Shown: positions 1 to 20,000 of the stretch, piece after piece
Layout: each line of letters opens with the position of its first letter
Position numbering within the stretch: the first letter of the stretch is position 1
NCBI GenBank assembly: GCA_027923505.1
Contig: BROI01000039.1
Location: forward strand, 106,480 to 126,479
From: Mayamaea pseudoterrestris
Taxonomy: Eukaryota
DNA length: 20,000 bases
Direction of reading: 5' to 3'
The notes under the pieces: model-generated
Databases searched by the model: none
What the model saw: only the letters and a program-made list of their open reading frames with translations
What the model was told of the DNA's origin: nothing
Made by a program: the position numbers and the translations under genes

Positions 1-2
1 GC

Positions 3-899
3 ACTTGTTTTAGTCCATGCGGTCACGTATTGCATAACAAATGCCACAAAACGACGCTCTCGCACGGCCTGCGTAATTGCCCATTGTGCAACCAAAACAT
101 CTCCTCTACTACTAAAGCGTTCCTAAAACACGATATCGATGCAGAAGCAGAAGAGCTGATGTTATCTATCAGGCGCTCCAGCGAAGTTGTCGACATAGAA
201 CATGCGCTCGCGAACATCGTCGAGTTTGTACATTTACATGATCCACGCGAGCAACGGACAGAGACTGCGCAGTTAGTGCGTCGATCTTCTGCAATAAGTA
301 GGGCGGGAGGCGTTGAGGTCATTCTCGGGACCATTCATGCTCTCGCGGATGGGCTACTGCGTCGGTGTTTTGCAATATCAACGGCGGGAGGTGTAGAAGT
401 GATTCTTGATACCATTCATGCGCTCGAGGACTGGTCAGATGCAAAGAACTATGCACTTTCCGTTCTAGCTAGATTATGTTTCTCCAGTGACGACAGTAAA
501 CGTGAATTTTTGCGCTACGGCGGTATGTCTATGCTTATTGAACGTTTTGATATGGGTGGGATTTCAGCGGAGTTTGCAGCTTACGCAACACATTACCTTA
601 TTCGATTGCGCTCGACGCATGAGTCATTTGTTGCTTTAGGAGGAATCAAGCACGTCGCAGCTGCCATGCGACGAGTTATTGACGATGCGGAGCTTCAATA
701 CTCTGGGTGCTACATCATCTTTTATCTATCGTCAAATTCTGACTACCTTGAGGAACTCGAGAAAGAAGGTTGCTTCTCACTCGCGGCCATGGCGTACGAG
801 ACTTATCCAAACTATTTACGTATGAAATATCGATTCGCTATTGTTATGAAACGTTACAAGGCTTTCATTGCATCGAGTAAGAGTAAAGAGTCCCTCTGA
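3..899 (+). CDS. RING-H2 finger plus ARM/HEAT-like helical repeat protein, probable E3 ubiquitin ligase (5' end lies upstream of the window)
   Basis: The frame of ORF 30..899 is open back to position 3 and reads TCFSPCGHVLHNKCHKTTLSHGLRNCPLC. This is the C-x-H-x2-H-x2-C...C-x2-C C-terminal part of a RING-H2 motif. Downstream segments (AGGVEVILDTI, YGGMSMLI, LGGIKHVAAAMRR, DAELQYSGC) resemble armadillo repeats. Stop TGA at 897-899. The listed start at 30 is TTG, not a true start. Confidence 0.7.
   Translation, partial: TCFSPCGHVLHNKCHKTTLSHGLRNCPLCNQNISSTTKAFLKHDIDAEAEELMLSIRRSSEVVDIEHALANIVEFVHLHDPREQRTETAQLVRRSSAISRAGGVEVILGTIHALADGLLRRCFAISTAGGVEVILDTIHALEDWSDAKNYALSVLARLCFSSDDSKREFLRYGGMSMLIERFDMGGISAEFAAYATHYLIRLRSTHESFVALGGIKHVAAAMRRVIDDAELQYSGCYIIFYLSSNSDYLEELEKEGCFSLAAMAYETYPNYLRMKYRFAIVMKRYKAFIASSKSKESL
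276..437 (+). repeat. 81-bp (27-aa) intragenic tandem duplication
   Basis: VRRSSAISRAGGVEVILGTIHALADG versus LRRCFAISTAGGVEVILDTIHALEDW. The DNA copies start at 276 and 357 and share gcgggagg and accattcatgc. Confidence 0.85.
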
Positions 900-1058
900 T
901 TCTTAATATGCGCAGGTCGCGGGCGCGAACGAATCAGCGCAAGCCATGGTCCTTCCTTTTCTAGTTCAACACAATCCGTTGCCCAGATACAAGTTTTTAA
1001 TGTTAGCAATGACTAGAAAACTGTACACTATATTGTAATAAGTGACCTCGCACAATTG

Positions 1059-2249
1059 CTAGTTTAATCGTTCAATGACAATGGCCGAAGCGCCTCCACC
1101 TCCATTACAAATGCTGGCGCATCCAATCGTCGCGTCCTTTTGGTTAAGCACGTTGTACAAATTCCCTACAATGCGAGCGCCACTCATCCCAATGGGATGC
1201 CCAAGAGCCACTGCTCCTCCAAAGACGTTTACCTTGGTTGGATCAAGGTTCATGAGCTTCATATTCGCAATCGCCACGACGCTAAACGCTTCGTTAATTT
1301 CGTGATAGTCCACATTCTCCGCTTGCACTCCGGCATGCTGGAGCGCCACCGGCACCGCCAAGGATGGCGTCGTGGTAAAGTCAACGGGAGCCTGCGCCGC
1401 GTCGCCGTAGCCCAAAATGCGGGCCAGCGGCTGCATGTTGCGCGCCATGGCTTCGCTCTCCGTCATGAGAACGAGCGCGGAAGCTCCATCGTTCAACGAA
1501 CTGGCATTGGCAGCCGTGACAGTACCTTGCTTGCGATCAAAAGCTGGTTGAATTGTTGCTATTCGGTCCATTTTGACATTGGACGGCTCCTCATCCGTGT
1601 CGACAACCAAAGCATCACCCTTGCGCTGCGGAACAGATACAGGAACAATATCGGTAAAGGCTCCATCTTGAATCGCCTGTTGCGCGCGCCGATACGATTC
1701 CACGGCATGTTCATCCTGCTCCTCCCTTGATATGGAGTAGTCCTTGCTGCACTTTTCGGCGCACATTCCCATGTGCTGCTCATTGTAAATGTCGTACAAG
1801 CCGTCGTGCACCAGGCCATCAATGAGACTAGCGTTTCCGAGTGGAAATCCATTGCGTGAATTCATGAGATAGTGTGGAATGTTGGACATGCTTTCAAAGC
1901 CACCGGCCAGCATGGCGTAGTTGGCATTTTGAGGAGCGGCGCACTGGAGCGACTGCGCCGCCAGCATGATGGACTTCATGCCCGACGCACACACCTTGTT
2001 GACAGTGGTACAAATGGTAGTTTCCGGCAAGCCCGCATATATTACAGCCTGACGAGCTGGCGCTTGGCCCATGCCAGCCGAAACAACATTCCCTAGAAAG
2101 GCTTCCTTGATCAGTAAATCGTTTGGCAGCTTGGATACTGCTCCCTTGATGGCAGCCGCGCCAAGCTCGGAGCCCTTGAGCGAACTCAGTGAACCACGGA
2201 ACTTGGCAATGGGAGTTCTGGCAATGCTGACAATCACAATGTTTGTCAT
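1059..2249 (-). CDS. Acetyl-CoA C-acetyltransferase (biosynthetic thiolase II, ERG10/AACT type), 396 aa, intronless
   Basis: All thiolase motifs are present: N-terminal IVSIARTPI, GNVVSAGMGQAPARQA, catalytic Cys in NKVCASG, NASSLNDGA, HEINEAF, GHPIGMSGAR and CNGGGGA. There is no N-terminal extension and the C-terminus is ERLN (no PTS1), which suggests a cytosolic enzyme. Confidence 0.95.
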   Translation of the reverse strand: MTNIVIVSIARTPIAKFRGSLSSLKGSELGAAAIKGAVSKLPNDLLIKEAFLGNVVSAGMGQAPARQAVIYAGLPETTICTTVNKVCASGMKSIMLAAQSLQCAAPQNANYAMLAGGFESMSNIPHYLMNSRNGFPLGNASLIDGLVHDGLYDIYNEQHMGMCAEKCSKDYSISREEQDEHAVESYRRAQQAIQDGAFTDIVPVSVPQRKGDALVVDTDEEPSNVKMDRIATIQPAFDRKQGTVTAANASSLNDGASALVLMTESEAMARNMQPLARILGYGDAAQAPVDFTTTPSLAVPVALQHAGVQAENVDYHEINEAFSVVAIANMKLMNLDPTKVNVFGGAVALGHPIGMSGARIVGNLYNVLNQKDATIGCASICNGGGGASAIVIERLN

Positions 2250-2617
2250 GCTGAAAGTCTCGTAGCTGTAAATGGATTGTGAAGTTGACGAAACGTTTTC
2301 GTTTCACAGTCTCAAGTGTCATGGTCGCGTGACGCGCGGCGACGCCCTGTCGCATCGCAACAGACACATTCTGGTCGCATCGGTAATGACATCGCGCGAC
2401 TCGGCGGCCAGTCGCCACCATGGAGGAAGCGTTCGACAAGAGTCAGTCTGATTCCGGAACGATCAAGCGATTTATTCTCTTTGCTTGAGCTCAGTAACTC
2501 AGTAAATCACATTGATCCACCAATTCGCATACCAAGAACCATAAAGTCCTGGAGTATAAGCTTTTCTTTTTGTTTTTGCCACCAAAAACAACAATCAATT
2601 GAACAACAACAGCAACA
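2250..2617. promoter_or_regulatory. Divergent (bidirectional) promoter region between thiolase and PEX13-like gene
   Basis: 368 bp separate two head-to-head ATGs. A CG-rich core has repeated GTCGC/GCGAC words, and an A/C-rich 5' leader (caacaacagcaaca) precedes the ATG at 2618. Inferred from gene geometry only. Confidence 0.45.
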
Positions 2618-3568
2618 ATGGCTCCTCCAAGCGTTTCATCACCAGTGACTACGCCTTACTCGAGTCAATATATAAGTTCTGCGTTGAAAGGTAATGGCGG
2701 TGAAAAGGCCAAGACTGTCAGAATACAAGAATCGCAAGCAGATGAAGCGCATCAGCAACAAGGAACGAACAACAATTCTACGAAACGAGCGACAGCAACG
2801 ACTGCTTTTAATAGTCCAACTTCTACTCCAGCTGCTACCCTGCCAACATCAAATGTCGCTCCGTTGCTTCCATCATCAGCACTATATGGAGGAGCCAGCA
2901 GTTTATACGGCGGCGCCAACATGGGAATGTATGGTGGCGGCTACGGAGGTGGCGGCGCCTACAACCCCATGTTGATGGGAGGAGGCATGTACAGCGGCGG
3001 CTACGGCGCCATGAACATGCTGGGAGGTCCATTAAACACACTGAATCAAGTCTTGTTCAGCGTGCAGACGGTCGTCTTTTCGCTTGGCCAGGCGGTGCAA
3101 ATTATTGGCATGAACACGCAGGCAATCAAGCAATTATTTGAATCATTGACGGGCATGTTTGACCACATTGTCGCCGCCGTGCAGGAACTGCAGGCACTGG
3201 AGCAGCAACAACGAGACAACATGACGGAGCAACAACTGAAACGGAAACGAAGGTTGCAAATGCTGCGATGGACCCTTGCGACGGCTGTCAGTTATAGTGC
3301 CTACAGGCTTGTTCGACGAATGTTTGGTCGACGACGAGACGATGCAATGCAACGACTTACAATGGGCAATGGCGGGAGCTACGGTGATCCATCGGGAGCG
3401 CTGCCAAATTTCAATACTCAGTATGGGAATGCTGGATACGGCAACGGTTCATACAATGGTTATGGAGGCATGAATCATCCACCGTATTCATCGTCTGGAA
3501 TGTTGCCGCACCAATCGTCCTACGGCGGCTACAATGGCAACTACGGACAAGGTGGAGGCTACTACTAG
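2618..3568 (+). CDS. PEX13: Peroxin 13-like peroxisomal docking membrane protein (plant/SH3-less type), 316 aa
   Basis: A Tyr/Gly/Met-rich YG region (LYGGASSLYGGANMGMYGGGYGGGG...) is followed by an amphipathic segment LNQVLFSVQTVVFSLGQAVQIIGMNTQAIKQLFESLTGMFD. This resembles the NTQA..F...L..LFD block of plant PEX13 as I recall it. A hydrophobic stretch WTLATAVSYSAY is flanked by basic residues. No SH3 domain is seen. Confidence 0.7.
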   Translation: MAPPSVSSPVTTPYSSQYISSALKGNGGEKAKTVRIQESQADEAHQQQGTNNNSTKRATATTAFNSPTSTPAATLPTSNVAPLLPSSALYGGASSLYGGANMGMYGGGYGGGGAYNPMLMGGGMYSGGYGAMNMLGGPLNTLNQVLFSVQTVVFSLGQAVQIIGMNTQAIKQLFESLTGMFDHIVAAVQELQALEQQQRDNMTEQQLKRKRRLQMLRWTLATAVSYSAYRLVRRMFGRRRDDAMQRLTMGNGGSYGDPSGALPNFNTQYGNAGYGNGSYNGYGGMNHPPYSSSGMLPHQSSYGGYNGNYGQGGGYY

Positions 3569-3654
3569 CGTTAACCATGTAAAACATTCTATATTATGTC
3601 TTTTAAAAGCATTTACATTGTTTCGATTCGACATTCCCAATAGTCGAAGCTTGT

Positions 3655-5778
3655 TTAAAGATCCACTGTATCATGCAAATTATACGTTCGTCGAGCGTTC
3701 CTCGGAATATCGCTCGCTCGCTGTGGATTGGTTGGTATAAAGGTGACGCCCCGTTGCCGCTTGAGCTCGCACGATTCGCAGTGCGGCGATGAGCACCAGT
3801 GGTGATCGGCATGTTGAATGCGATCCTGCGAGTCCACCTCTATGTTTTCATCCTCGTTCATAAAGTCCTCGTCAAATGTACGGTCCAGTCGATTGTTGTT
3901 TTTAACTCTTGACGCTGCATAGACCGGTTGCACTTCAACTCCGTCGCCATTGTTCGAGTAGTCCGATGTCAGAATGGAGTCATCTTCGCCTACTACATGC
4001 GCCATGCGCTTTTGCTGATACGGAGTGCTGCTGTAAGCACTGGAACTATGCAGCATGCTTTCGTCCTCCTCGTCATCGGTATTGGCCGCCTTGAGCAAGC
4101 TATTGTCTTCGCGGAAGCGCCTGCCGCGGCGGTTCGCGGCAAAGACGGACGCCAGCACCACCACCAGCACGCTCAAGGTGACAGCCACGGCGGCGCCAGC
4201 GGAAATGCCACCCGCGCCAGGTTCCACGTTGCTTGGTCCCTGAATGCCCGACGTGCCGTCATCGTCGTTGGTATCGTCATCGCGACCCGATGCATCGTCA
4301 TTATTGTCAAGGTCATCGTCGTTGGACGAGTCTCCGCCACCTTCCTGAACCGGTGGCGTACCATAAACACTCTTCGTCGCCAGTGAGCTCACAACGTCAT
4401 TGCCTTGCACGTCAAGATTGGCGCTCATAATGGCCGTCTCGAGCGAGTTGGGAAAGCCGCTCAAATTGCCGACAGAATTGTCGTAATAAGCAGTGACGCG
4501 ACTCCTTGTCGTGACGCAAACAGTCTTGCCGTCGGATGCAATTCCAAACTCGCTGCACTCGTCTGTGGGCGCAGTAGTGAAAAGAGAGAATCGTGTGAGT
4601 TTAGAATGGGATGCGAATCTAAAACGACATCGTTTCATTCAATTGAATCACTTACTAAACTCATCCACTTGCAGCGACCCAAAGACAACGTTAACAATCG
4701 TAGCTTCCTCCTGCGAGTCTGTATTCTGCAGGTACCGCAGTCGCCGGCGTCCATTGCTATTGTTTCTATCACTATTTTCGTCGCTTGCGGCGTCACTACA
4801 ATTAGTCAATGTGGGTGCCACTTGCGTCTGCAGCGCCAGTCGCAACTCGTCCAAGACTTGCTCGACGGATGCCGTGGACGACACCGCCAAGCCAAGCTGC
4901 AAGTCAAAGGTGGTTGACGAGGACGAAGCGGAGCTGCTAACAAACGTTTCATCCGCCACTTTGTCGCAGGCAGTCTTTGGTGTAGCCGTGGGACGACTCG
5001 TTGGGGATGCACTTGGTCTACCGGTACGCGTCGTCGGTTCCTTGCTTGGAGCAAACGTTGCTTCCGCTTCGGCTCTACCCGCAGTTGGAGCTACTGTTGA
5101 TGTTTCAAAAACACTTGGTGTCGGAAAGGGAGTCGTCATTGTTGGAGTAGTCATGGAAGGTGCCATGACTGGTGGCGTGGTGTAACTCGACGCTGCAGTT
5201 GGTGCAGGTGTGCCGTCGCCTTGAAGTCCAGGTGATATTGTAGGTTCGCCGCGTCCAATGAGTGTACTGTCGTCGTCATCGGCATTTACTTCGGGAACAC
5301 TTGTTCCATCAGTGCCGCCTCCTCCAGTTCCATCAGTCTTTCCTTCATTATTGTCTGGAGGAGGAGGCGGCGGTGGAAGCGGTCTACTCCCGGCCGATCC
5401 GCTGCTACTGGAGATTTCGCGACAAAGTCGAGGCGGCGGCCCCTTCTTCTTGGACGCCTTTGCTTGCTTGAGTGAAGCTCCTTTGAGTTGCTTGACGCAA
5501 TCAGTTGTCAAAGGAGGCGTTCCCTTGGGCGGTGCAGCTGCTTGAAAGGCGCGACTCAGTACTTGCAGCGGATTCTGTGGAGTGGCAATGACGACCTCAT
5601 TATTGTCAACGTGAAGTTTACGACTAAATTGTTCGTGTTCGTCGTCTTGTCGGGAATAGTCATGGCGTACTATTGCATCGACCGATGTTACTGATAGTTG
5701 TTGAGGTTCGCCGCTTGCATTGAGCGAGTTCCATGATAGAAGAAGCAACCCGAGTAATTGCAGAGATTGTCGCATCAT
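3655..5778 (-). CDS. Two-exon type I membrane protein (~676 aa): signal peptide, Pro/Thr/Ser-rich stalk, RXL motifs, single TM, acidic cytosolic tail with His/Cys cluster. Exons 5778-4656 and 4562-3655.
   Basis: ORFs 4648..5778 and 3655..4638 join in frame through a phase-1 intron (A|GTAAGT ... CACAG|AC, giving QVDEF-N-ECSEF). Other features are the N-terminal signal MMRQSLQLLGLLLLSWNSLNASG, a TM segment GAAVAVTLSVLVVVLASVFAA followed by NRRGRR, and the tail motif HHWCSSPHCESC. Confidence 0.8.
4563..4655 (-). other. 93-bp spliceosomal GT-AG intron
   Basis: On the minus strand: donor GTAAGT at 4655-4650, a CTCAC branch-like motif, a pyrimidine tract TTCTCTCTTTTC and acceptor CAG ending at 4563. 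Removing it preserves the reading frame. Confidence 0.85.
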
Positions 5779-6138
5779 TCACTGTCAGGTAGTCTCCTTA
5801 TTCCAATCAAGTATTACTGTATAAACTTTGCAGGGATGTTGACGCTAGCAACGACGACGAGGACGTTCATTCCAGAGTCGTTGAGGACGTGTGCGTCAAC
5901 AGGCGGATGAAAATTTCGTTGGCAGTCATCGCGCACGCAAATCGTGTGCACGTCCATGGGCTCGGGAAAATGGCGGGTCACTTTGTGGCGGTCATTGTCC
6001 GTTGGGCGAGCGTGTCGGGTTGTGCTGTGTGCGAAGATAGTCGTATCGGTACTAAACATCGGAACGGGACTGATTCCAGCGTCGGAACGAGCACCGTCCG
6101 ATTCCTTCGTTCCAACAGCATGAACATCAACTTTAACT
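5779..6138. promoter_or_regulatory. Divergent promoter region between the membrane-protein gene and DHQS
   Basis: 360 bp lie between head-to-head ATGs at 5778 (-) and 6139 (+). Inferred from geometry only. Confidence 0.4.
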
Positions 6139-7536
6139 ATGGCAGCAGCAACGACAAGACCTATATGCGCTTGGGCGCTGACTCTGTGGATGCTTGCATC
6201 TTGTATTCATGACGCGAGCGCCTTTGCCAATGTCAATAGTAGCAAGCGACAATCACTCGGCGTCGCCCGAGCAGCAGCAGCATCCGATCTGGGAAGCACC
6301 GTCGTTAGCAAACATCACTACGACGTTGTCAAGGTTGATTTGGAAGATGGAAGAGACTATCCCATTTACATTGGAACGAAATTTGCAAATGACGAAGGTA
6401 CGTAGTGTGGCATTGACTCCCATGCAGACTACTTGCATTGCTTCTTTGCTCATTCATTTTCGAAAAATTGCCGTGCCACAACTACAGCCGCATCAATACT
6501 ACAATCGCATATTCACGGAAACAAGGTTCTCATTGTCACGAACGATCGCATTGCACCAATGTACCTTGACAAGTACACGCAATTGCTAGCTTCCAATCCT
6601 CAATTATCCGTCGACACGTTGGTCATTCCAGACGGCGAGCAGCACAAGAACTTTGACGTATTGCAAAGCATACTCGACAAGTGTTTGGAGAATAGTTTGG
6701 ATCGCAAGGCGACACTCGTTGCCCTGGGCGGCGGTGTCATTGGTGACATGGTGGGTTTTGCGGCGGCCATTTACCAGCGCGGCGTCAACTTTGTGCAAAT
6801 ACCCACCACCGTCATGGCCATGGTTGACAGCAGTGTCGGAGGCAAGACGGGGGTGAACCATCCAATGGGTAAAAACATGATTGGCGCGTTTCATCAACCT
6901 CAATGTGTTTTTGTTGACACTGATACACTAGCGACCTTGCCGGATCGGGAGCTGTGTTCGGGTATTTCGGAAATTATCAAGTACGGACTTATCAGGGATG
7001 CTGCATTCTTCGAGTGGCAGGAGGAGCACATGGATGAGTTGCTGCAACGAAACCCTGAGGCGCTGCGGTATGCCATCACAAGGTCATGCCAAAACAAGGC
7101 AGCCGTTGTCAAGGCTGACGAAAAGGAGGCTGGGCTTCGTGCAACGCTGAACTTGGGTCATACGTTTGGACATGCGATTGAGAATGGGTCTGGCTACGGC
7201 ACTTGGCTACACGGTGAAGCCGTCGCCATTGGAACCGCCATGGCTACGAGCATGTCGGCGCGACTGGGCTGGATTGACACGAGCTTGGTGAAGCGAGTTT
7301 ACGACATATTGCACCGGGCCAAGCTACCAACGGAACTACCATTGGACTCACCCATGAACCGCGACAATTTTCTAAGGCTCATGTCTGTTGACAAAAAGGT
7401 GGCCAATGGGCAGTTGCGGTTAATTTTGCTCAAGGGCGAACTGGGCGAATGCGTCTTTACAGGCAACTTCGACAATGAAGCTATGATTGATACTGTGGAT
7501 GAATTTGTGGCTGAATGTGGAGCCATTGCAAAGTAG
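6139..7536 (+). CDS. aroB: Plastid-targeted 3-dehydroquinate synthase (~435 aa). Exons 6139-6397 and 6488-7536.
   Basis: DHQS motifs YPIYIG, PDGEQHK, ALGGGVIGDMVGFAAAIYQRG, PTTVMAMVDSSVGGKTGVN, KNMIGAFHQP, EIIKYGLI, RATLNLGHTFGHAIE, LHGEAVAIG and DKK are present. The N-terminal signal peptide ends in ASA|FAN (diatom ASAFAP-type cleavage site) and is followed by a Ser/Arg/Ala-rich transit peptide. Confidence 0.95.
6398..6487 (+). other. 90-bp spliceosomal GT-AG intron in DHQS
   Basis: Donor G|GTACGT at 6398, a branch-like TGCTCAT near 6447-6453 and acceptor TACAG| at 6487. The phase-1 join G+CC gives Ala and links the two ORF frames (…FANDE-A-ASILQSH…). Confidence 0.88.
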
Positions 7537-7640
7537 CAACAATATACTAACTCTATTTACAAGTATGAGTAGTAAAGTCTTTGTGATAGTTAAAAGGTAT
7601 GTCAGTCAGATCCCGTTGCTACACTGTTGCGGGACTATGT

Positions 7641-10600
7641 TCTCAGCCTGCAGATGCCTTGGCATTCAAAACGCACCTACAGCAGGCCATGTATATACCC
7701 AAATGACACCAGAATGGTGCTAACATCATTATTCAGGCTGCGCTACAAGATGGTAGGCTTGGCTGGTGTCTCAGGGCATGGCTTTGTATTTGGTGACAAC
7801 TTGTCACCAGTCTCAGCCTGCAGATGCCGTGACATTCAAACGCCCCTACAGCAAGCCCTGTAGGTGCCCAAAATACACCAGAATGGTGCCAACGTCATTG
7901 TTCAGGCTGCGCTACAAGATGGCAGGCTTGGCTGGTGTCTCAGGGGATGGCAATGATATTGGTGACAACTTGTCACCAGTCTCAGCCCGCGGATGCCGTG
8001 ACATTCAAACGCCCCTACAGCAGGCTATGTATACACCCAAATGACACCAGAATGGTGCCAACATCATTATTCAGGCTGCGCTACAAGATGGTATGCCTGG
8101 CTAGTGTCTGAGGGGATGGCAATGTTATTGGTGACAACTTGTCACCAGTCTCAGATTACTGATGCCGTGACATTCAAATGCCCCTACAGCAGGCCATGTA
8201 TACACCCAAGCTACACCAGAATGGTGCCAACATCAATATAAAAGCTGCGCTACAAGATGGTATGCCTGGCTGGTGTCTCAGGGGACGGCAATGATATTGG
8301 TGACAACTTGTCACCAGTCTCAGCCTGCAGATGCCATTACATTCAAACGCGCCTACAGCAGGCCATGTATAAACCCAAATGACACCAGAATGGTGCTAAC
8401 AACATTATAAAACCTGCGCTACAAGATGGTATGCCTGGCTAGTGTCTCAGGGGACGGCAATGATATTGGTGACAGATGCCGTGACATTCAAACACCCCTA
8501 CAGCAGGCCATGTATACACCCAAATAACACCATAATGGTGCCAACGTCATTATTCAGGCTGGGCTACAAGATGGTATGCCTGGCTAGTGTCTCAGGGGAC
8601 GGCAATGATATTGGTGACAACTTGTCACCAGATGCCCGGCATTCAACCTACAGCAGGCCATGTATATACCCAAATGACACAAGAATGGTGCCAACATCAT
8701 TTTTCAGGCTGCGCTAAAAGATGATATGCCTGGCTAGTGTCTCAGGGCATGGGGATAGACAACTTGTCACCAGTCTCAGCCTGCAGATGCCGTGACATTC
8801 AAACGCCCCTACAGCAAGCCCTGTAGGTGCCCAAAATACACCAGAATGGTGCCAACGTCATTATTCAGGCTGCGCTACAAGATGGTAGGCTTGGCTGGTG
8901 TCTCAGGGGATGGCAATGATATTGGTGACAACTTGTCACCAGTCTCAACCCGCTGATGCCGTGACATTCAAACGCCCCTACAGCAGGCCATGTATACACC
9001 CAAATGACACCAGAATGTTGCCAACATCATCATTCAGGCTGCGCTACAAGATGGTATGCCTGGCTAGTGTCTGAGGGGATGGCAATGTTATTGGTGACAA
9101 CTTGTCACCAGTCTCAGATTACTGATGCCGTGACATTCAAATGCCCCTACAGCAGGCCATGTATACACCCAAATGACACCAGAATGGTGCCAACATCATT
9201 ATTCAGGCTGCGCTACAAGATGGTATGCCTGGCTAGTGTCTCAGGGGATGGCAATGATATTGGTGACAACTTGTCACCAGTCTCAGCCTGCAGATGCCAT
9301 TACATTCAAACGCGCCTACAGCAGGCCATGTATAAACCCCAATGACACCAGAATGGTGCTAGGGTAACTTCATTATACAACCTGCACTACAAGATGGTAT
9401 GCCTGGCAAGTGTCTCAGGGGACGGCAATGTGATTGGTGAGTAGTTCTCACCAGTCTCATCCCACAGATGCCGTGACATTCAAACACCCCTACAGCAGGC
9501 CATGTATACAACCAAATGATACCAGAATGTTGCCAACATCATTATTCAGGCTGCGCTACAAGATGGTATGCCTGACTAGTGTAGTGTCTCAGGGGACGGC
9601 AATGATATTGGTGACAACTTGTCACCAGTCTCAGCCTGCAGATGCCGTGACATTCAAACGCCCCTACAGCAGGCCATGTATACACCCAAATGACACCAGA
9701 ATGGTGCCAACTTCATTATACAACCTGCGCTACAAGATGGTTTGCCTGGTTAGTGTCTCAGGGGATGGCAATGTGAGTGGTGAGTAGTTCTCACCAGTCT
9801 CATCCCACAGATGCCGTGACATTCAAACGCCTTTACAGCAGGCCATGTATAAACCCATATAATACCAGAATGGTGCCAACATCATTGTTCAGGCTGCGCT
9901 ACAAGATGGTAGGCTTGGCTAGTGTCTCAGGGGACGGCAATGATATTGGTGACAACTTGTCACCAGTCTCAGCCTGCAGATGCCGTGACATTCAAACGCC
10001 CCTACAGCAGGCCATGTATACACCCAAATGACACCAGAATGGTGCCAACATCATTATTCAGGCTGCGCTACAAGATGGTATGCCTGGCTAGTGTCTCAGG
10101 GGACGGCAATGATATTGGTGACAACTTGTCACCAGTCTCAGCCTGCGGATGCCGTGACATTCAAACGCCCCTACAGCAGGCCATGTATACACCCAAATGA
10201 CACCAGAATGGTGCCAACATCATTATTCAGGCTGCGCTACAAGACGGTATGCCTGGCTAGTGTCTCAGGGGACGGCAATGATATTGGTGACAACTTGTCA
10301 CCAGTCTCAGCCTGCAGATGCCATGACATTCAGACGCCCCTACAGCAGGCCATGTATACACCCAAATGACACCAGAATGGTGCCAACATCATTATTCAGG
10401 CTGCGCTACAAGATGGTATGCCTGGCTAGTGTCTCAGGGGACGGCAATGATATTGGTGACAACTTGTCACCAGTCTCAGCCTGCAGATGCCGTGACATTC
10501 GAACGCCCCTTCAGCAGGCCATGAATATATCCAAATGACACCAGATTGGTGCCAACATTAATCATTATTCAGGCTGCGCTACAAGATGGTATGCCTGGCT

Positions 10601-13600
10601 AGTGTCTCAGGGGACGGCAATGATATTGGTGACAACTTGTCACCAGTCTCAGCCTGCAGATGCCGTGACATTCAAACGCCCCTTCAGCAGGCCATGTATA
10701 CACCCAAATGACACCAGAATGGTGCCAACATCATTATTCAGGCTGAGCTACAAGATGGTATGCCTGGCTAGTGTCTCAGGGGACGGCAATGATATTGGTG
10801 ACAACTTGTCACCAGTCTCAGCCTGCAGATGCCGTGACATTCAAATGCCCTTACAGCAGGCCATGTATACACCCAAATGACACCAGAATGGTGCCAACAT
10901 CATTATTCAGGCTGCGCTACAAGATGGTATGCCTGGCTAGTGTCTCAGGGGACGGCAATGATATTGGTGACAACTTGTCACCAGTCTCAGCCCGCGGATG
11001 CCGTGACATTCAAACGCCCCTACAGCAGGCCATGTATACACCCAAATGACACCAGAATGGTGCCAACATCATTATTCAGGCTGCGCTACAAGATGGTATG
11101 CCTGGCTAGTGTCTCAGGGGACGGCAATGATATTGGTGACAACTTGTCACCAGTCTCAGCCCGCGGATGCCGTGACATTCAAACGCCCCTACAGCAGGCC
11201 ATGTATACACCCAAATGACACCAGAATGGTGCCAACATCATTATTCAGGCTGCGCTACAAGATGGTATGCCTGGCTAGTGTCTCAGGGGACGGCAATGAT
11301 ATTGGTGACAACTTGTCACCAGTCTCAGCCTGCAGATGCCGTGACATTCAAACGCCCCTACAGCAGGCCATGTATACACCCAAATGACACCAGAATGGTG
11401 CCAACATCATTATTCAGGCTGCGCTACAAGATGGTATGCCTGGCTAGTGTCTCAGGGGACGGCAATGATATTGGTGACAACTTGTCACCAGTCTCAGCCT
11501 GCAGATGCCGTGACATTCAAACGCCCCTACAGCAGGCCATGTATACACCCAAATGACACCAGAATGGTGCCAACATCATTATTCAGGCTGCGCTACAAGA
11601 TGGTATGCCTGGCTAGTGTCTCAGGGGAGGGCAATGATATTGGTGACAACTTGTCACCAGTCTCAGCCCGCAGATGCCGTGACATTCAAACGCCCCTACA
11701 GCAGGCCATGTATACACCCAAATGACACCAGAATGGTGCCAACATCATCATTCAGGCTGTGCTACAAGAGGGTATGCCTGGCTAGTGTCTCAGGGGACGG
11801 CAATGATATTGGTGACAACTTGTCACCAGTCTCAGCCTGCAGATGCCGTGACATTCAAACGCCCCTACAGCAGGCCATGTATACACCCAAATGACACCAG
11901 AATGGTGCCAACATCATTATTCAGGCTGCGCTACAAGATGGTATGCCTGGCTAGTGTCTCAGGGGACGGCAATGATATTGGTGACAACTTGTCACCAGTC
12001 TCAGCCTGCAGATGCCGTGACATTCAAACGCCCCTACAGCAGGCCATGTATACACCCAAATGACACCAGAATGGTGCCAACATCATTATTCAGGCTGCGC
12101 TACAAGATGGTATGCCTGGCTAGTGTCTCAGGGGACGGCAATGATATTGGTGACAACTTGTCACCAGTCTCAGCCCGCGGATGCCGTGACATTCAAACGC
12201 CCCTACAGCAGGCCATGACTATACCCAAATGACACCAGAATGGTGCCAACATCATTATTCAGGCTGCGCTACAAGATGGTATGCCTGGCTAGTGTCTCAG
12301 GGGACAGCAATGATATTGGTGACAACTTGTCACCAGTCTCAGCCTGCAGATGCCGTGACATTCAAACGCCCCTACAGCAGGCCATGTATACCCAAATGAC
12401 ACCAGAATGGTGCCAACATCATTATTCAGGCTGCGCTACAAGATGGTATGCCTGGCTAGTGTCTCAGGGGACGGCAATGATATTGGTGACAACTTGTCAC
12501 CAGTCTCAGCCTGCAGATGCCGTGACATTCAAACGCCCCTACAGCAGGCCATGAATATACCCAAATGACACCAGAATGGTGCCAACATCATTATTCAGGC
12601 TGCGCTACAAGATGGTATGCCTGGCTAGTGTCTCAGGGGACGGCAATGATATTGGTGACAACTTGTCACCAGTCTCAGCCCGCAGATGCCGTGACATTCA
12701 AACGCCCCTACAGCAGGCCATGAATATACCCAAATGACACCAGATTGGTGCCAACATCATTATTCAGGCTGCGCTACAAGATGGTATGCCTGGCTAGTGT
12801 CTCAGGGGACGGCAATGATATTGGTGACAACTTGTCACCAGTCTCAGCCTGCAGATGCCGTGACATTCAAATGCCCCTACAGCAGGCCATGTATACACCC
12901 AAATGACACCAGAATGGTGCCAACATCATTATTCAGGCTGCGCTACAAGATGGTATGCCTGGCTAGTGTCTCAGGGGACGGCAATGATATTGGTGACAAC
13001 TTGTCACCAGTCTCAGCCCGCAGATGCCGTGACATTCAAACGCCCCTACAGCAGGCCATGACTATACCCAAATGACACCAGAATGGTGCCAACATCATTA
13101 TTCAGGCTGCGCTACAAGATGGTATGCCTGGCTAGTGTCTCAGGGGACGGCAATGATATTGGTGACAACTTGTCACCAGTCTCAGCCTGCAGATGCCGTG
13201 ACATTCAAACGCCCCTACAGCAGGCCATGAATACACCCAAATGACACCAGAATGGTGCCAACATCATTATTCAGGCTGCGCTACAAGATGGTATGCCTGG
13301 TTAGTGTCTCAGGTGACAGCAATGATAGTGGTGACGACTTGTACCAGTCTCAGCCTGCAGATGCCGTGACATTCAAACGCCCTCACAGCAGGCCATGTAT
13401 ACACCCAAATGACACTAAAATGGTGCCAACATCATTATTCAGGCTGCGCTACAAGATGGTATGCCTGGCTAGTGTCTCAGGGGACGGCAATGATATTGGT
13501 GACAACTTGTCACCAGTCTCAGCCCGCAGATGCCGTGACATTCAAACGCCCCTACAGCAGGCCATGTATACACCCAAATGACACCAGAATGGTGCCAACA

Positions 13601-16600
13601 TCATTATTCAGGCTGCGCTACAAGATGGTATGCCTGGCTAGTGTCTCAGGGGACGGCAATGATATTGGTGACAACTTGTCACCAGTCTCAGCCTGCAGAT
13701 GCCGTGACATTCAAACACACCTACAGCAGGCCATGTATACACCCAAATGACACCAGAATGGTGCCAACATCATTATTCAGGCTGCGCTACAAGATGGTAT
13801 GCCTGGATAGTGTCTCAGGGGACGGCAATGTGATTGGTGACAACTTGTCACCAGTCTCAGCCTGCAGATGCTGTGACATTCAAACGCCCCTACAGCAGGC
13901 CATGTGTACACCCAAATGACACCAGAATGGTGCCAACATCATTATTCAGGCTGCGCTACAAGATGGTATGCCTGGCTAGTGTCTCAGGGGACGGCAATGA
14001 TATTGGTGACAACTTGTCACCAGTCTCAGCCCGCGGATGCCGTGACATTCAAACGCCCCTACAGCAGGCCATGTATACACCCAAATGACACCAGAATGGT
14101 GCCAACATCATTATTCAGGCTGCGCTACAAGATGGTATGCCTGGCTAGTGTCTCAGGGGACAGGAATTGGTGACAACTTGTCACCAGTCTCAGCCTGCAG
14201 ATGCCGTGACATTCAAACGCCCCTACAGCAGGCCATGTATACGCCCAAATGACACCAGAATGGTGCCAACATCATTATTCAGGCTGCGCTACAAGATGGT
14301 ATGCCTGGCTAGTGTCTCAGGGGACGGCAATGATATTGGTGACAACTTGTCACCAGTCTCAGCCTGCAGATGCCGTGACATTCAAACGCCCCTACAGCAG
14401 GCCATGTATACACCCAAATGACACCAGAATGGTGCCAACATCATTATTCAGGCTGCGCTACAAGATGGTATGCCTGGCTAGTGTCTCAGGGGACGGCAAT
14501 GATATTGGTGACAACTTGTCACCAGTCTCAGCCTGCAGATGCCGTGACATTCAAACGCCCCTACAGCAGGCCATGTATACACCCAAATGACACCAGAATG
14601 GTGCCAACATCATTATTCAGGCTGCGCTACAAGATGGTATGCCTGGCTAGTGTCTCAGGGGACGGCAATGATATTGGTGACAACTTGTCACCAGTCTCAG
14701 CCTGCAGATGCCGTGACATTCAAACGCCCCTACAGCAGGCCATGTATACACCCAAATGACACCAGAATGGTGCCAACATCATTATTCAGGCTGCGCTACA
14801 AGATGGTATGCCTGGCTAGTGTCTCAGGGGACGGCAATGATATTGGTGACAACTTGTCACCAGTCTCAGCCTGCAGATGCCGTGACATTCAAACGCCCCT
14901 ACAGCAGGCCATGTATACACCCAAATGACACCAGAATGGTGCCAACATCATTATTCAGGCTGCGCTACAAGATGGTATGCCTGGCTAGTGTCGCAGGGGA
15001 TGGCAACGATATTGGTGACAACTTGTCACCAGTCTCAGCCTGCAGATGCCGTGACATTCAAACGCCCCTACAGCAGGCCATGTATACACCCAAATGACAC
15101 CAGAATGGTGCCAACATCATTATTCAGGCTGCGCTACAAGATGGTATGCCTGGCTAGTGTCTCAGGGGACGGCAATGATATTGGTGACAACTTGTCACCA
15201 GTCTCAGCCTGCAGATGCCGTGACATTCAAACGCCCCTACAGCAGGCCATGTATACACCCAAATGACACCAGAATGGTGCCAACATCATTATTCAGGCTG
15301 CGCTACAAGATGGTATGCCTGGCTAGTGTCTCAGGGGACAGCAATGATATTGGTGACAACTTGTCACCAGTCTCAGCCTGCAGATGCCGTGACATTCAAA
15401 CGCCCCTACAGCAGGCCATGTATACACCCAAATGACACCAGAATGGTGCCAACATCATTATTCAGGCTGCGCTACAAGATGGTATGCCTGGCTAGTGTCT
15501 CAGGGGACGGCAATGATATTGGTGACAACTTGTCACCAGTCTCAGCCTGCAGATGCCGTGACATTCAAATGCCCCTACAGCAGGCCATGTATACACCCAA
15601 ATGACACCAGAATGGTGCCAACATCATTATTCAGGCTGCGCTACAAGATGGTATGCCTGGCTAGTGTCTCAGGGGACGGCAATGATATTGGTGACAACTT
15701 GTCACCAGTCTCAGCCTGCAGATGCCGTGACATAAAACGCCCCTACAGCAGGCCATGTATACACCCAAATGACACCAGAATGGTGCCAACATCATTATTC
15801 AGGCTGCGCTACAAGATGGTATGCCTGGCTAGTGTCTCAGGGGACGGCAATGATATTGGTGACAACTTGTCACCAGTCTCAGCCTGCAGATGCCGTGACA
15901 TTCAAACGCCCCTACAGCAGGCCATGTATACACCCAAATGACACCAGAATGGTGCCAACATCATTATTCAGGCTGCGCTACAAGATGGTATGCCTGGCTA
16001 GTGTCTCAGGGGACGGCAATGATATTGGTGACAACTTGTCACCAGTCTCAGCCTGCAGATGCCGTGACATTCAAACGCCCCTACAGCAGGCCATGTATAC
16101 ACCCAAATGACACCAGAATGGTGCCAACATCATTATTCAGGCTGCGCTACAAGATGGTATGCCTGGCTAGTGTCTCAGGGGACGGCAATGATATTGGTGA
16201 CAACTTGTCACCAGTCTCAGCCTGCAGATGCCGTGACATTCAAACGCCCCTACAGCAGGCCATGTATACACCCAAATGACACCAGAATGGTGCCAACATC
16301 ATTATTCAGGCTGCGCTACAAGATGGTATGCCTGGCTAGTGTCTCAGGGGACGGCAATGATATTGGTGACAACTTGTCACCAGTCTCAGCCTGCAGATGC
16401 CGTGACATTCAAACGCCCCTACAGCAGGCCATGTATACACCCAAATGACACCAGAATGGTGCCAACATCATTATTCAGGCTGCGCTACAAGATGGTATGC
16501 CTGGCTAGTGTCTCAGGGGACGGCAATGATATTGGTGACAACTTGTCACCAGTCTCAGCCTGCAGATGCCGTGACATTCAAACGCCCCTACAGCAGGCCA

Positions 16601-19600
16601 TGTATACACCCAAATGACACCAGAATGGTGCCAACATCATTATTCAGGCTGCGCTACAAGATGGTATGCCTGGCTAGTGTCTCAGGGGACGGCAATGATA
16701 TTGGTGACAACTTGTCACCAGTCTCAGCCTGCAGATGCCGTGACATTCAAACGCCCCTACAGCAGGCCATGTATACACCCAAATGACACCAGAATGGTGC
16801 CAACATCATTATTCAGGCTGCGCTACAAGATGGTATGCCTGGCTAGTGTCTCAGGGGACAGCAATGATATTGGTGACAACTTGTCACCAGTCTCAGCCTG
16901 CAGATGCCGTGACATTCAAACGCCCCTACAGCAGGCCATGTATACACCCAAATGACACCAGAATGGTGCCAACATCATTATTCAGGCTGCGCTACAAGAT
17001 GGTATGCCTGGCTAGTGTCTCAGGGGACGGCAATGATATTGGTGACAACTTGTCACCAGTCTCAGCCTGCAGATGCCGTGACATTCAAACGCCCCTACAG
17101 CAGGCCATGTATACACCCAAATGACACCAGAATGGTGCCAACATCATTATTCAGGCTGCGCTACAAGATGGTATGCCTGGCTAGTGTCTCAGGGGACGGC
17201 AATGATATTGGTGACAACTTGTCACCAGTCTCAGCCTGCAGATGCCGTGACATTCAAACGCCCCTACAGCAGGCCATGTATACACCCAAATGACACCAGA
17301 ATGGTGCCAACATCATTATTCAGGCTGCGCTACAAGATGGTATGCCTGGCTAGTGTCTCAGGGGACGGCAATGATATTGGTGACAACTTGTCACCAGTCT
17401 CAGCCTGCAGATGCCGTGACATTCAAACACCCCTACAGCAGGCCATGACTATACCCAAATGACACCAGAATGGTGCCAACATCATTATTCAGGCTGCGCT
17501 ACAAGATGGTATGCCTGGCTAGTGTCTCAGGGGACGGCAATGATATTGGTGACAACTTGTCACCAGTCTCAGCCTGCGGATGCCGTGACATTCAAACGCC
17601 CCTACAGCAGGCCATGTATACACCCAAATGACACCAGAATGGTGCCAACATCATTATTCAGGCTGCGCTACAAGATGGTATGCCTGGCTAGTGTCTCAGG
17701 GGACGGCAATGATATTGGTGACAACTTGTCACCAGTCTCAGCCTGCAGATGCCGTGACATTCAAACGCCCCTACAGCAGGCCATGTATACACCCAAATGA
17801 CACCAGAATGGTGCCAACATCATTATTCAGGCTGCGCTACAAGATGGTATGCCTGGCTAGTGTCTCAGGGGAAGATATTGGTGACAACTTGTCACCAGTC
17901 TCAGCCTGCGGATGCCGTGACATTCAAACGCCCCTACAGCAGGCCATGTATACACCCAAATGACACCAGAATGGTGCCAACATCATTATTCAGGCTGCGC
18001 TACAAGATGGTATGCCTGGCTAGTGTCTCAGGGGACGGCAATGATATTGGTGACAACTTGTCACCAGTCTCAGCCCGCAGATGCCGTGACATTCAAACGC
18101 CCCTACAGCAGGCCATGTATACACCCAAATGACACCAGAATGGTGCCAACATCATTATTCAGGCTGCGCTACAAGATGGTATGCCTGGCTAGTGTCTCAG
18201 GGGACGGCAATGATATTGGTGACAACTTGTCACCAGTCTCAGCCTGCAGATGCCGTGACATTCAAACGCCCCTACAGCAGGCCATGTATACACCCAAATG
18301 ACACCAGAATGGTGCCAACATCATTATTCAGGCTGCGCTACAAGATGGTATGCCTGGCTAGTGTCTCAGGGGACGGCAATGATATTGGTGACAACTTGTC
18401 ACCAGTCTCAGCCCGCAGATGCCGTGACATTCAAACGCCCCTACAGCAAGCCCTGTAGGCACCCAAATGACACCAGAATGGTGCCAACATCATTATTCAG
18501 GCTGCGCTACAAGATGGTATGCCTGGCTAGTGTCTCAGGGGATGGCAATGATATTGGTGACAACTTGTCACCAGTCTCAGCCTGCAGATGCCGTGACATT
18601 CAAACGCCCCTACAGCAGGCCATGTATACACCCAAATGACACCAGAATGGTGCCAACATCATTATTCAGGCTGCGCTACAAGATGGTATGCCTGGCTAGT
18701 GTCTCAGGGGACGGCAATGATATTGGTGACAACTTGTCACCAGTCTCAGCCTGCAGATGCCGTGACATTCAAACGCCCCTACAGCAGGCCATGTATACAC
18801 CCAAATGACACCAGAATGGTGCCAACATCATTATTCAGGCTGCGCTACAAGATGGTATGCCTGGCTAGTGTCTCAGGGGACGGCAATGATATTGGTGACA
18901 ACTTGTCACCAGTCTCAGCCTGCAGATGCCGTGACATTCAAACGCCCTTCAGCAGGCCATGTATACACCCAAATGACACCAGAATGGTGCCAACATCATT
19001 ATTCAGGCTGCGCTACAAGATGGTATGCCTGGCTAGTGTCTCAGGGGACGGCAATGATATTGGTGACAACTTGTCACCAGTCTCAGCCTGCAGATGCCGT
19101 GACATTCAAACACCCCTACAGCAGGCCATGTATATACCCAAATGTCACCAGAATATTGCTAACATCATCATTCCGGCTGCGCTACAATATGGTATGCCTG
19201 GCTAGTGTCTCAGGGGACGGCAATGATATTGGTGACAACTTGTCACCAGTCTCAGCCCTGCAGATGCCATGACATTCAAACGCACCTACAGCAGGCCATC
19301 TAGATCCACACATAACGCCACAATCTTGCCATCATCATCATTCAGGCTGCGCTACAAGATGGTATGCCTGGCTAGTGTCTCAGGGGACGGCAATGATATT
19401 GGTGACAACTTGTCACCAGTCTCAGCCTGCGGATGCCGTGACATTCAAACGCCCCTACAGCAGGCCATGACTATACCCAAATGACACCAGAATGGTGCCA
19501 ACATCATTATTCAGGCTGTGCTACAAGATGGTATGCCTGGCTAGTGTCTCAGGGGACGGCAATGATATTGGTGACAACTTGTCACCAGTCTCAGCCCGCG

Positions 19601-20000
19601 GATGCTGTGACATTAACGCCAACACAGGCCATGAATATATCCAAATGACACCAGAATGGTGCCAACATCATTATTCAGGCTGCGCTACAAGATGGTATGC
19701 CTGGCTAGTGTCTCAGGGGATGGCAATGATATTGGTGACAACTTGTCACCAGTCTCAGCCTGCAGATGCCGTGACATTCAAACGCCCCTACAGCAGGCCA
19801 TGTATACACCCAAATGACACCAGAATGGTGCCAACATCATTATTCAGGCTGCGCTACAAGATGGTATGCCTGGCTAGTGTCTCAGGGGACGGCATTGTGA
19901 TTGGTGACAACTTGTCACCAGTCTCAGCCTGCAGATGCCGTGACATTCAAACACCCCTACAGCAGGCCATGTATACACCCAAATGACACCAGAATGGGCA
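7641..20000. repeat. 169-bp tandem satellite array, ~73 head-to-tail copies, continuing beyond the window
   Basis: Consensus: aaatgacaccagaatggtgccaacatcattattcaggctgcgctacaagatggtatgcctggctagtgtctcaggggacggcaatgatattggtgacaacttgtcaccagtctcagcctgcagatgccgtgacattcaaacgcccctacagcaggccatgtatacaccc (169 nt, 86 G+C by hand count). The period is confirmed by identical ORF starts recurring every 169 bp (10877, 11046, 11215, ...). All copies are in the same orientation and no insertions of foreign sequence were seen. Confidence 0.99.

Follow-up and report, generated by a model that had tools for sequence, protein, structure and literature searches.

The window, i.e., the whole 20,000-nt stretch of Mayamaea pseudoterrestris DNA analysed here (contig BROI01000039.1), holds a gene-bearing left part and a tandem repeat that runs to its right end (Table 1). 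The left flank is ordinary gene-dense DNA with 47–55% GC, and its last gene encodes a 3-dehydroquinate synthase. The first-pass annotation had called the genome diatom-like, in agreement with the relatives of the thiolase: among the 120 best listed, all six that carried an organism name (6/6) were diatoms, at 68–71% identity.

Table 1 Features of the gene–satellite border in the window (position 1 is the first letter of the window)
Feature	Position	Strand	Remarks
3-dehydroquinate synthase gene bordering the array	6289..7536	+	Main ORF 6433-7536; likely upstream exon ~6289-6402 matches relatives
Unique spacer	7537..7640	.	104 nt from the synthase stop codon to the first monomer; without similarity to the monomer
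Satellite array, head-to-tail 169-bp monomers	7641..20000	+	Tandem Repeats Finder, lag self-identity, profile search
Diverged proximal edge, monomers 1-14	7641..9966	+	5-18 substitutions each vs consensus
Homogenised core, monomers 15-68	9967..19080	+	0-6 substitutions each
More diverged monomers 69-74	19081..20000	+	3-15 substitutions, small indels
Palindrome example	16195..16213	.	Arms 16195-16203 / 16205-16213

The repeat is a single one-directional tandem array that comprises 73 complete 169-bp monomers and a further one truncated where the window stops; its length of 12,360 nt is a minimum, as the array continues past that point. Tandem Repeats Finder reported a period of 169 at 7641–8474 (4.9 copies, 88% matches) and again at 8647–19997 (67.2 copies, 95% matches), the two stretches being separated by a zone of deleted variants with a period of 145 nt (8328–8930). 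Self-identity was 0.82 at a lag of 169, vs 0.22–0.27 at lags of 160–179. A monomer profile, built from ten clean monomers and searched on both strands of the window, yielded 74 contiguous plus-strand matches spanning 7641–19997, with the rest of the window free of matches; minus-strand matches were limited to the ~26 palindromic nt that end the monomer. The nucleosome-sized 169-bp satellite proposed in the first-pass annotation is thus genuine by both the profile matches and the self-identity. Its description as uninterrupted, unidirectional, ~51% GC and at least 12.3 kb long was confirmed as well (consensus GC 50.9%), with one correction: the array is unbroken and same-strand throughout, yet indels are present, and exactly 169 nt are found in 57 of the 73 full units, the others measuring 145–174 nt.

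Substitution counts per monomer revealed the pattern of concerted evolution, with a homogenised interior and diverged edges. There were 49 distinct monomer types among the 73 full units, and the 20 units identical to the consensus all lie within the core. The proximal edge additionally carries 13–24-nt deletions in three neighbouring units (8318–8773) and 5-nt insertions in two units (9281–9628). About half of the variants in monomers 69–74 recur in left-edge monomers, where 20 of the 45 distinct interior variants and all six variants of monomer 65 (6/6) were found, too. Variants common to edge and interior monomers are real shared polymorphisms. No higher-order repeat was detected: mean identity stayed flat (0.958–0.969) over monomer distances of 1 to 30, without a periodic peak.

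The array almost certainly constitutes real, non-coding satellite DNA. Stop codons occur in every frame cycle, leaving a longest stop-to-stop frame of 202 aa and a typical one of 126 aa. The translated monomer matched no Pfam family, and a protein database search with it returned a lone unnamed match (P0121). Searches against Rfam gave no match at threshold, just two sub-threshold ones (E = 0.66), and no tRNA was found in the array. A coding or structured-RNA nature was rejected for lack of a long ORF, Pfam family, Rfam match or tRNA. The whole monomer folded no better than its shuffles (z = −1.0), and the runs listed as containing the sequence included no RNA run.

A transposon-derived array found no support in the sequence covered. 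The left flank consists of the synthase gene and unique spacer, the right flank lies beyond the window, the monomer lacks a Pfam domain, and its profile matched neither other parts of the window nor any of 80 related loci. The latter are metagenome loci (602,713 nt in total) encoding relatives of the synthase (best 81% identity), all of them lacking the monomer; the four best-matching ones (L001, L002, L011 and L012) have only the synthase in common with the window, and the set says nothing on the age of the array. When 78 consecutive letters of the monomer were searched for as an exact string in metagenome contigs, 0 matches were obtained.

The base composition of the array shows CpG decay. 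The observed/expected ratio of CpG was 0.366 in the array vs 1.135 in the 7.6-kb flank. Transitions affected 8/8 CpG positions vs 22/78 other G/C sites (Fisher p = 1.1e-4), and transition runs per site amounted to 3.75 vs 0.64, an approximately six-fold excess, with the restriction that these statistics count alignment cells and runs inside one array, not independent events. Loss of CpG by transition is as expected of methylated heterochromatin. Such chromatin would be equally compatible with a pericentromeric or an interstitial position.

To estimate how widespread the satellite is, we turned to independent sequencing runs. In run X2, from which 5,581 contigs were placed on the window, the flank was present in all 30 bins, and of the 3,331 aligned letters listed, 45 differed, which corresponds to 98.6% identity. 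Word depth on the 29 flank bins was about 30 (range 15–60), vs a summed depth of 749,849 on the first-monomer bin. This suggests ~10^4 monomer copies genome-wide, to be taken as an order of magnitude only, since depth summed over contigs does not measure copy number. Restriction to a single locus, which the first-pass annotation had listed together with missing CENH3 enrichment as counting against its proposal, was not borne out, as the monomer exceeded the single-copy flank enormously in depth. In run X5, monomer depth was ~5,060 and the flank almost uncovered. Runs X5, X12 and X15 had some depth on only 3–4 of 30 bins of the unique flank, which is no evidence of absence. The monomer is so abundant that, in other runs, it shows up as the only sign of the organism.

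The same runs bear on whether the array could be an assembly artefact, a chimeric join or a repeat from another organism. The array does run off the window, and the junction at 7537–7641 is bridged by none of the listed contig pieces. Against this, the head-to-tail joint (7810->7641) was recovered in three independent runs (X2, with 6 contigs, X12 and X15), and X2 contains both the nearly identical flank and the repeat. Moreover, the graded decay at the edge and the variants shared family-wide are typical of real borders, unlike collapsed or duplicated reads. We therefore regard an artefact as very improbable.

Regarding chromosomal position, the first-pass annotation had hedged that a subtelomeric or neutral satellite was equally possible from sequence alone, and this caution was fair. 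The only positional clue that we found favours the subtelomere, its own alternative: one X2 contig leaves the monomer at position 44 and goes on with a stretch bearing CCCTAA repeats, the link being a single contig with 41 loose letters, next to 86 further loose ends beyond those listed. CCCTAA is described as the diatom telomere unit (10.1101/2021.11.10.468027). In the X2 contig, the telomere is found on the 5′ side of the plus-strand monomer; in the window, genes lie 5′ of the monomers, and a telomere beyond the array would therefore have the opposite polarity to that contig. Within the window itself, telomere repeats gave 0 matches with one mismatch allowed; the array's distal end is outside the window.

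Tentatively, then, the satellite family is most likely chromosome-end heterochromatin, subtelomeric or terminal. The array in the window would be one locus of a very abundant family, with ~10^4 monomers in the small genome of this diatom. Within and between arrays, the monomers would be kept alike by unequal exchange together with gene conversion, both of which would reach the edge copies least. The arrays would be packaged as cytosine-methylated, silent chromatin that drives the decay of CpG, and at least some of them may sit directly under the telomere at chromosome ends. Our window would then cover the gene-proximal edge of one such array. Subtelomeric satellites of nucleosome length exist in plants and algae, such as the ~180-bp HRS60 of tobacco, and Sultan arrays lie under the telomeres of Chlamydomonas; arrays of this type are located between the last genes and the telomere. 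The present array resembles both in being long, one-directional, homogenised and non-coding, and one contig here abuts telomere-type repeats. A sequence relation is not expected, and the window and the X2 contig may differ in their polarity relative to the telomere.

Alternatively, the satellite could be interstitial or dispersed heterochromatin without a specific chromosomal role. Many arrays of a selfish or neutral repeat would then be scattered among the genes; unequal exchange would have expanded them and kept them homogeneous, and copies near telomeres would be occasional. This is a realistic possibility, if a somewhat weaker one. The array starts right behind a housekeeping gene, in DNA of ordinary gene density and GC, and X2 contains thousands of contigs with distinct variants, suggesting that arrays or subfamilies are numerous. 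Divergence rises at monomers 69–72, where a second edge could lie, which would make this a short array of ~13 kb. The contig measures 126,479 nt, and therefore the array need not be terminal. The telomere-adjacent X2 contig speaks against this alternative, and the dispersal it assumes is putative, with only one locus in view.

A third possibility, placed foremost in the title of the first-pass annotation, is a centromeric satellite, with one long array per chromosome carrying the centromeric histone and building the kinetochore. We consider this unlikely. The monomer is of nucleosome length and highly homogenised, and its abundance would be compatible with ~100–200 kb per chromosome if there were a few tens of chromosomes, a rough calculation. 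Each standard monomer carries, close to its 3′ end, a perfect palindrome whose two 9-nt arms flank a 1-nt spacer; the monomer also has a weak 5+5 dyad. No other 19-nt stretch of the monomer varies as little as the palindrome (9 changes vs a mean of 32 per 19-nt window), which could be a protein-binding or non-B-DNA element; elements of both kinds have been proposed for other centromeric satellites. However, a 9-nt arm was reached by 14 of 500 dinucleotide shuffles, i.e., it is only marginally above chance, and the units with deletions at 8318–8773 lack the palindrome. The palindrome and the 5+5 dyad make up the dyad symmetry that the first-pass annotation had ascribed to each monomer. Nucleosome-positioning WW periodicity of ~10 bp did not exceed that of shuffles at any tested period, and the missing higher-order repeat and the telomere-adjacent contig in X2 also weigh against a centromere. 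A higher-order repeat is common among centromeric satellites, not obligatory.

Known centromeric satellites, primate alpha satellite (~171 bp) and Arabidopsis CEN178/180, share with our array a unit of near-nucleosome length that is present in many copies and strongly homogenised, along with decay or methylation of CpG and a short motif conserved within the unit. They differ from it in that our array has no higher-order repeat and a GC content equal to the genome background instead of being AT-rich. According to two studies of diatoms, low GC maintains episomes and recruits CENP-A in Phaeodactylum tricornutum and has been used for predicting centromeres in Thalassiosira and Fistulifera (10.1101/096016; 10.1101/2021.11.10.468027). 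Centromeres of P. tricornutum are characterised there by a cluster of 100-bp windows at GC ≤32%, without repeats (10.1101/096016), and among the predicted centromeres of Fistulifera solaris the best-performing tested fragments were ~1.4–2 kb long with 36–42% GC (10.1101/2021.11.10.468027). Our array shares the diatom host and the non-coding character with these short, low-GC elements; it comprises at least 12.3 kb made up entirely of repeats at 51% GC, and none of its 12,261 100-bp windows had a GC content ≤32% (minimum 43%). A centromere built on it would thus be of another type than the short, low-GC, repeat-free ones. None of our results speaks positively for centromere identity, and the emphasis of that title was not earned. 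That this diatom lineage replaced such centromeres by satellite centromeres, with the palindrome nucleating kinetochore chromatin, is slightly less likely still; if true, it would represent a switch of centromere type within diatoms. A centromeric role of the satellite, if it proved true, would bear directly on the turnover of centromere types and on how artificial chromosomes are designed for diatoms.

Whatever its location, the satellite is a newly found family of a known kind of DNA, one that forms silent chromatin at centromeres or at the ends of chromosomes. Model diatom genomes are compact and repeat-poor, and in the literature searched we found no description of a diatom satellite family; the diatom centromeres characterised in the two studies are short and low in GC (10.1101/096016; 10.1101/2021.11.10.468027) and, in P. 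tricornutum, without repeats (10.1101/096016). Taking the ~37 Mb total of the X2 contigs as the genome-size figure, the satellite may form several percent of the genome. If so, repeat heterochromatin would form large blocks in one lineage of diatoms at least, and the family would serve as a ready marker of chromosome ends or centromeres in assemblies of this lineage. Satellite repeats have hardly been studied before in stramenopiles, as stated in a report on satellite families of the oomycete Phytophthora parasitica (PMC7290008), which likewise have a stramenopile host and belong to another lineage. Finally, rhizosphere, soil and leaf-litter runs were among those listed as matching, only a hint on the habitat.

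The 169-bp repeat is classical satellite DNA in kind; each of the four defining features tested for was present. Tandem Repeats Finder reported a 169-nt period at 7641-8474 (4.9 copies, 88% matches) and at 8647-19,997 (67.2 copies, 95% matches), with a stretch of 145-nt deleted variants between both blocks, and self-identity of the array was 0.82 at lag 169 vs 0.22-0.27 at lags 160-179. A monomer profile built from ten clean units gave 74 contiguous plus-strand matches (7641-19,997) and none elsewhere in the window; on the minus strand, it matched only the last ~26 unit positions, where a palindrome sits. This period and the contiguous matches establish as real the unidirectional array proposed in the first-pass annotation, and its figure of ~51% GC agrees with the unit consensus (50.9%). 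Exactly 169 nt were found in 57 of the 73 full units, the remaining units having 145-174 nt. The end of the window truncates the array, which is thus at least 12,360 nt long. Functionally, it comes closest to nucleosome-length satellites of plant and algal subtelomeres and to centromeric satellites, alpha satellite among them. No diatom satellite family was found described in the literature searched, which comprised main texts with few subscription journals.

The full units comprise 49 distinct monomer types, and these variants are real, not noise. Identity between monomers showed no peak by distance, staying at 0.958-0.969 over distances of 1-30 monomers, thus there is no higher-order repeat. 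Left-edge units also contain 20 of the 45 distinct interior variants, and monomer 65 has all of its six variants in common with them. Reasoning from established satellite biology, this pattern would fit a family in which unequal exchange and conversion have made the units uniform and old variants may persist at the array borders. In all of three adjacent units at 8318-8773, 13-24 nt spanning the unit junction are missing, a loss that removes one palindrome arm and leads to a local period of 145-156 nt; evidently, the deleted form was itself duplicated.

Genes of the left flank and monomer groups of the array (monomers numbered from left to right; substitutions counted against the consensus)
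Feature	Position	Strand	Domains or variation
Acetyl-CoA acetyltransferase	1059-2249	-	Thiolase_N, Thiolase_C
3-dehydroquinate synthase, main ORF	6433-7536	+	DHQ_synthase, DHQS_C
Monomers 1-14			5-18 substitutions/unit; most larger indels
Monomers 15-68			0-6 substitutions/unit; all 20 consensus-identical units
Monomers 69-72			5-15 substitutions/unit; small indels

Dyad symmetry had been claimed for each unit. The unit indeed carries, near its 3′ end, a perfect palindrome of 9+9 nt around a 1-nt spacer, together with a weak 5+5 dyad. The palindrome is only marginally unusual against chance alone, as a 9-nt arm was reached in 14 of 500 dinucleotide shuffles, and the deleted units at 8318-8773 lack it in intact form. 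Folding of the whole unit was no better than that of shuffles (z = -1.0). Still, no other 19-nt stretch of the unit varies as little as the palindrome, which has 9 changes where 19-nt windows average 32.

Read as a protein gene, the unit has stops in every three-frame cycle; stop-to-stop frames in the array are most commonly 126 aa and at most 202 aa long. The translated unit matched no Pfam family and, among 5.8 billion proteins, only the unnamed P0121. ARAGORN found no tRNA in the array, and an Rfam search of it returned just two sub-threshold matches (E = 0.66). CpG observed/expected was 0.366 in the array vs 1.135 in the flank, and the unit consensus retains four CpGs. Transitions occurred in some unit at 8 of 8 CpG positions vs 22 of 78 other G/C positions (Fisher p = 1.1e-4), and runs of transition-bearing units numbered 3.75 per CpG position vs 0.64 per other G/C position; all these counts are from a single array, and the events are not independent of each other. 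Such a pattern is well established to result from 5-methylcytosine deamination. Judged by this sequence signature, the arrays may be packaged as methylated heterochromatin.

Characterised diatom centromeres are short and low in GC, those of Phaeodactylum being repeat-free; low GC itself sustains episomes and recruits CENP-A in Phaeodactylum, and low-GC regions occur about once per scaffold in Thalassiosira and are the basis of centromere prediction in Fistulifera (10.1101/096016; 10.1101/2021.11.10.468027). In contrast to the Phaeodactylum centromeres, the array consists entirely of repeats, with a minimum of 43% GC per 100 bp. None of its 12,261 100-bp windows lay at ≤32% GC, which speaks against the proposed satellite-based centromere, and the array has neither a higher-order repeat nor a ~10-bp WW periodicity. 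A centromeric satellite, one of several classes that can overlap, is unlikely; nothing in the GC, higher-order or WW tests supports a new centromere type, though their results are compatible with one. Low GC is confined in this window to one spot at 3500-3660 (38 100-bp windows at ≤32% GC, minimum 30% near 3560), which lies in the gap between two convergent ORFs and is far too small for a Phaeodactylum-type centromere.

Sampled words of a five-unit stretch (15,877-16,721) were found in 20 sequencing runs from 16 studies, and the source may be among them; none of the runs is recorded as RNA. By label, 12 of the 20 are rhizosphere, soil or leaf-litter metagenomes, no more than a hint that this repeat might serve to detect a soil or freshwater diatom with high sensitivity. 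The flank and first monomer (900-7810) were placed on four runs. X2 covered 30 of 30 bins with a flank word depth of 15-60, and its 45 differences in 3,331 aligned letters listed (98.6% identity) indicate a close relative or another strain. Its monomer bin had a summed depth of 749,849 (5,581 contigs placed), which in order of magnitude corresponds to ~10^4 units and a few Mb, against 37 Mb of contigs in that run; summed depth is not copy number. X5 had ~5,060 on the monomer and a nearly uncovered flank. X12 and X15, runs of other organisms, hold the repeat as a trace only, with one ~210-nt contig each, at 7 and 3.5, where other contigs have depths of 25-126. The tandem joint 7810 to 7641 is present in X2 (six contigs), X12 and X15, thus the head-to-tail order is independent of this assembly. 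An assembly artefact or chimera, again a class open to overlap, is highly improbable.

One X2 contig carries CCCTAA-repeat letters before monomer position 44, a link from a single contig with 41 loose letters, besides which 86 other loose ends exist outside the listing. This is the sole positional clue among the ends listed, and a thin one. Its polarity is awkward: the telomere lies 5′ of the plus-strand unit there vs genes in the window, from which the telomere motif is absent. For Fistulifera, CCCTAA was taken as the telomere unit (10.1101/2021.11.10.468027). We tentatively read the satellite as chromosome-end heterochromatin, at somewhat less than an even chance and as a class that can overlap with the others. 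Only slightly less probable is a satellite that is dispersed or interstitial and has no particular role; a small remainder of the probability falls to none of these classes.

The contig to which the window belongs has a length of 126,479 nt. The 7.6-kb flank is gene-dense and ordinary (47-55% GC), with several further ORFs without family match. Of the 120 best thiolase relatives listed, six are proteins with a named organism, in every case a diatom (Epithemia, two Nitzschia, Pseudo-nitzschia, Seminavis and Helicotheca; 68-71% identity), which bears out the suggestion of a diatom-like genome; the closest unnamed relative among these 120 reached 81%. The unit was not found in 80 metagenome loci encoding synthase relatives (best 81% identity). 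Four of these (L001, L002, L011, L012) align both to the main synthase ORF and to an upstream exon candidate at ~6289-6402, thus a short intron probably interrupts the gene and appears to span ~75-85 nt within 6289-6477. The synthase stop codon precedes the first monomer by 104 nt, a spacer without similarity to the unit. The products of three ORFs, 2618-3568 (+), 3655-4638 (-) and 4648-5778 (-), are of low complexity, rich in Gly/Tyr or in Pro/Thr/Ser, and belong to no Pfam family. Within the open-ended ORF 3-899, whose protein has a cysteine-rich N terminus and no Pfam match, an 81-nt unit at 277-430 (1.9 copies, 78% matches) duplicates a 27-residue segment.
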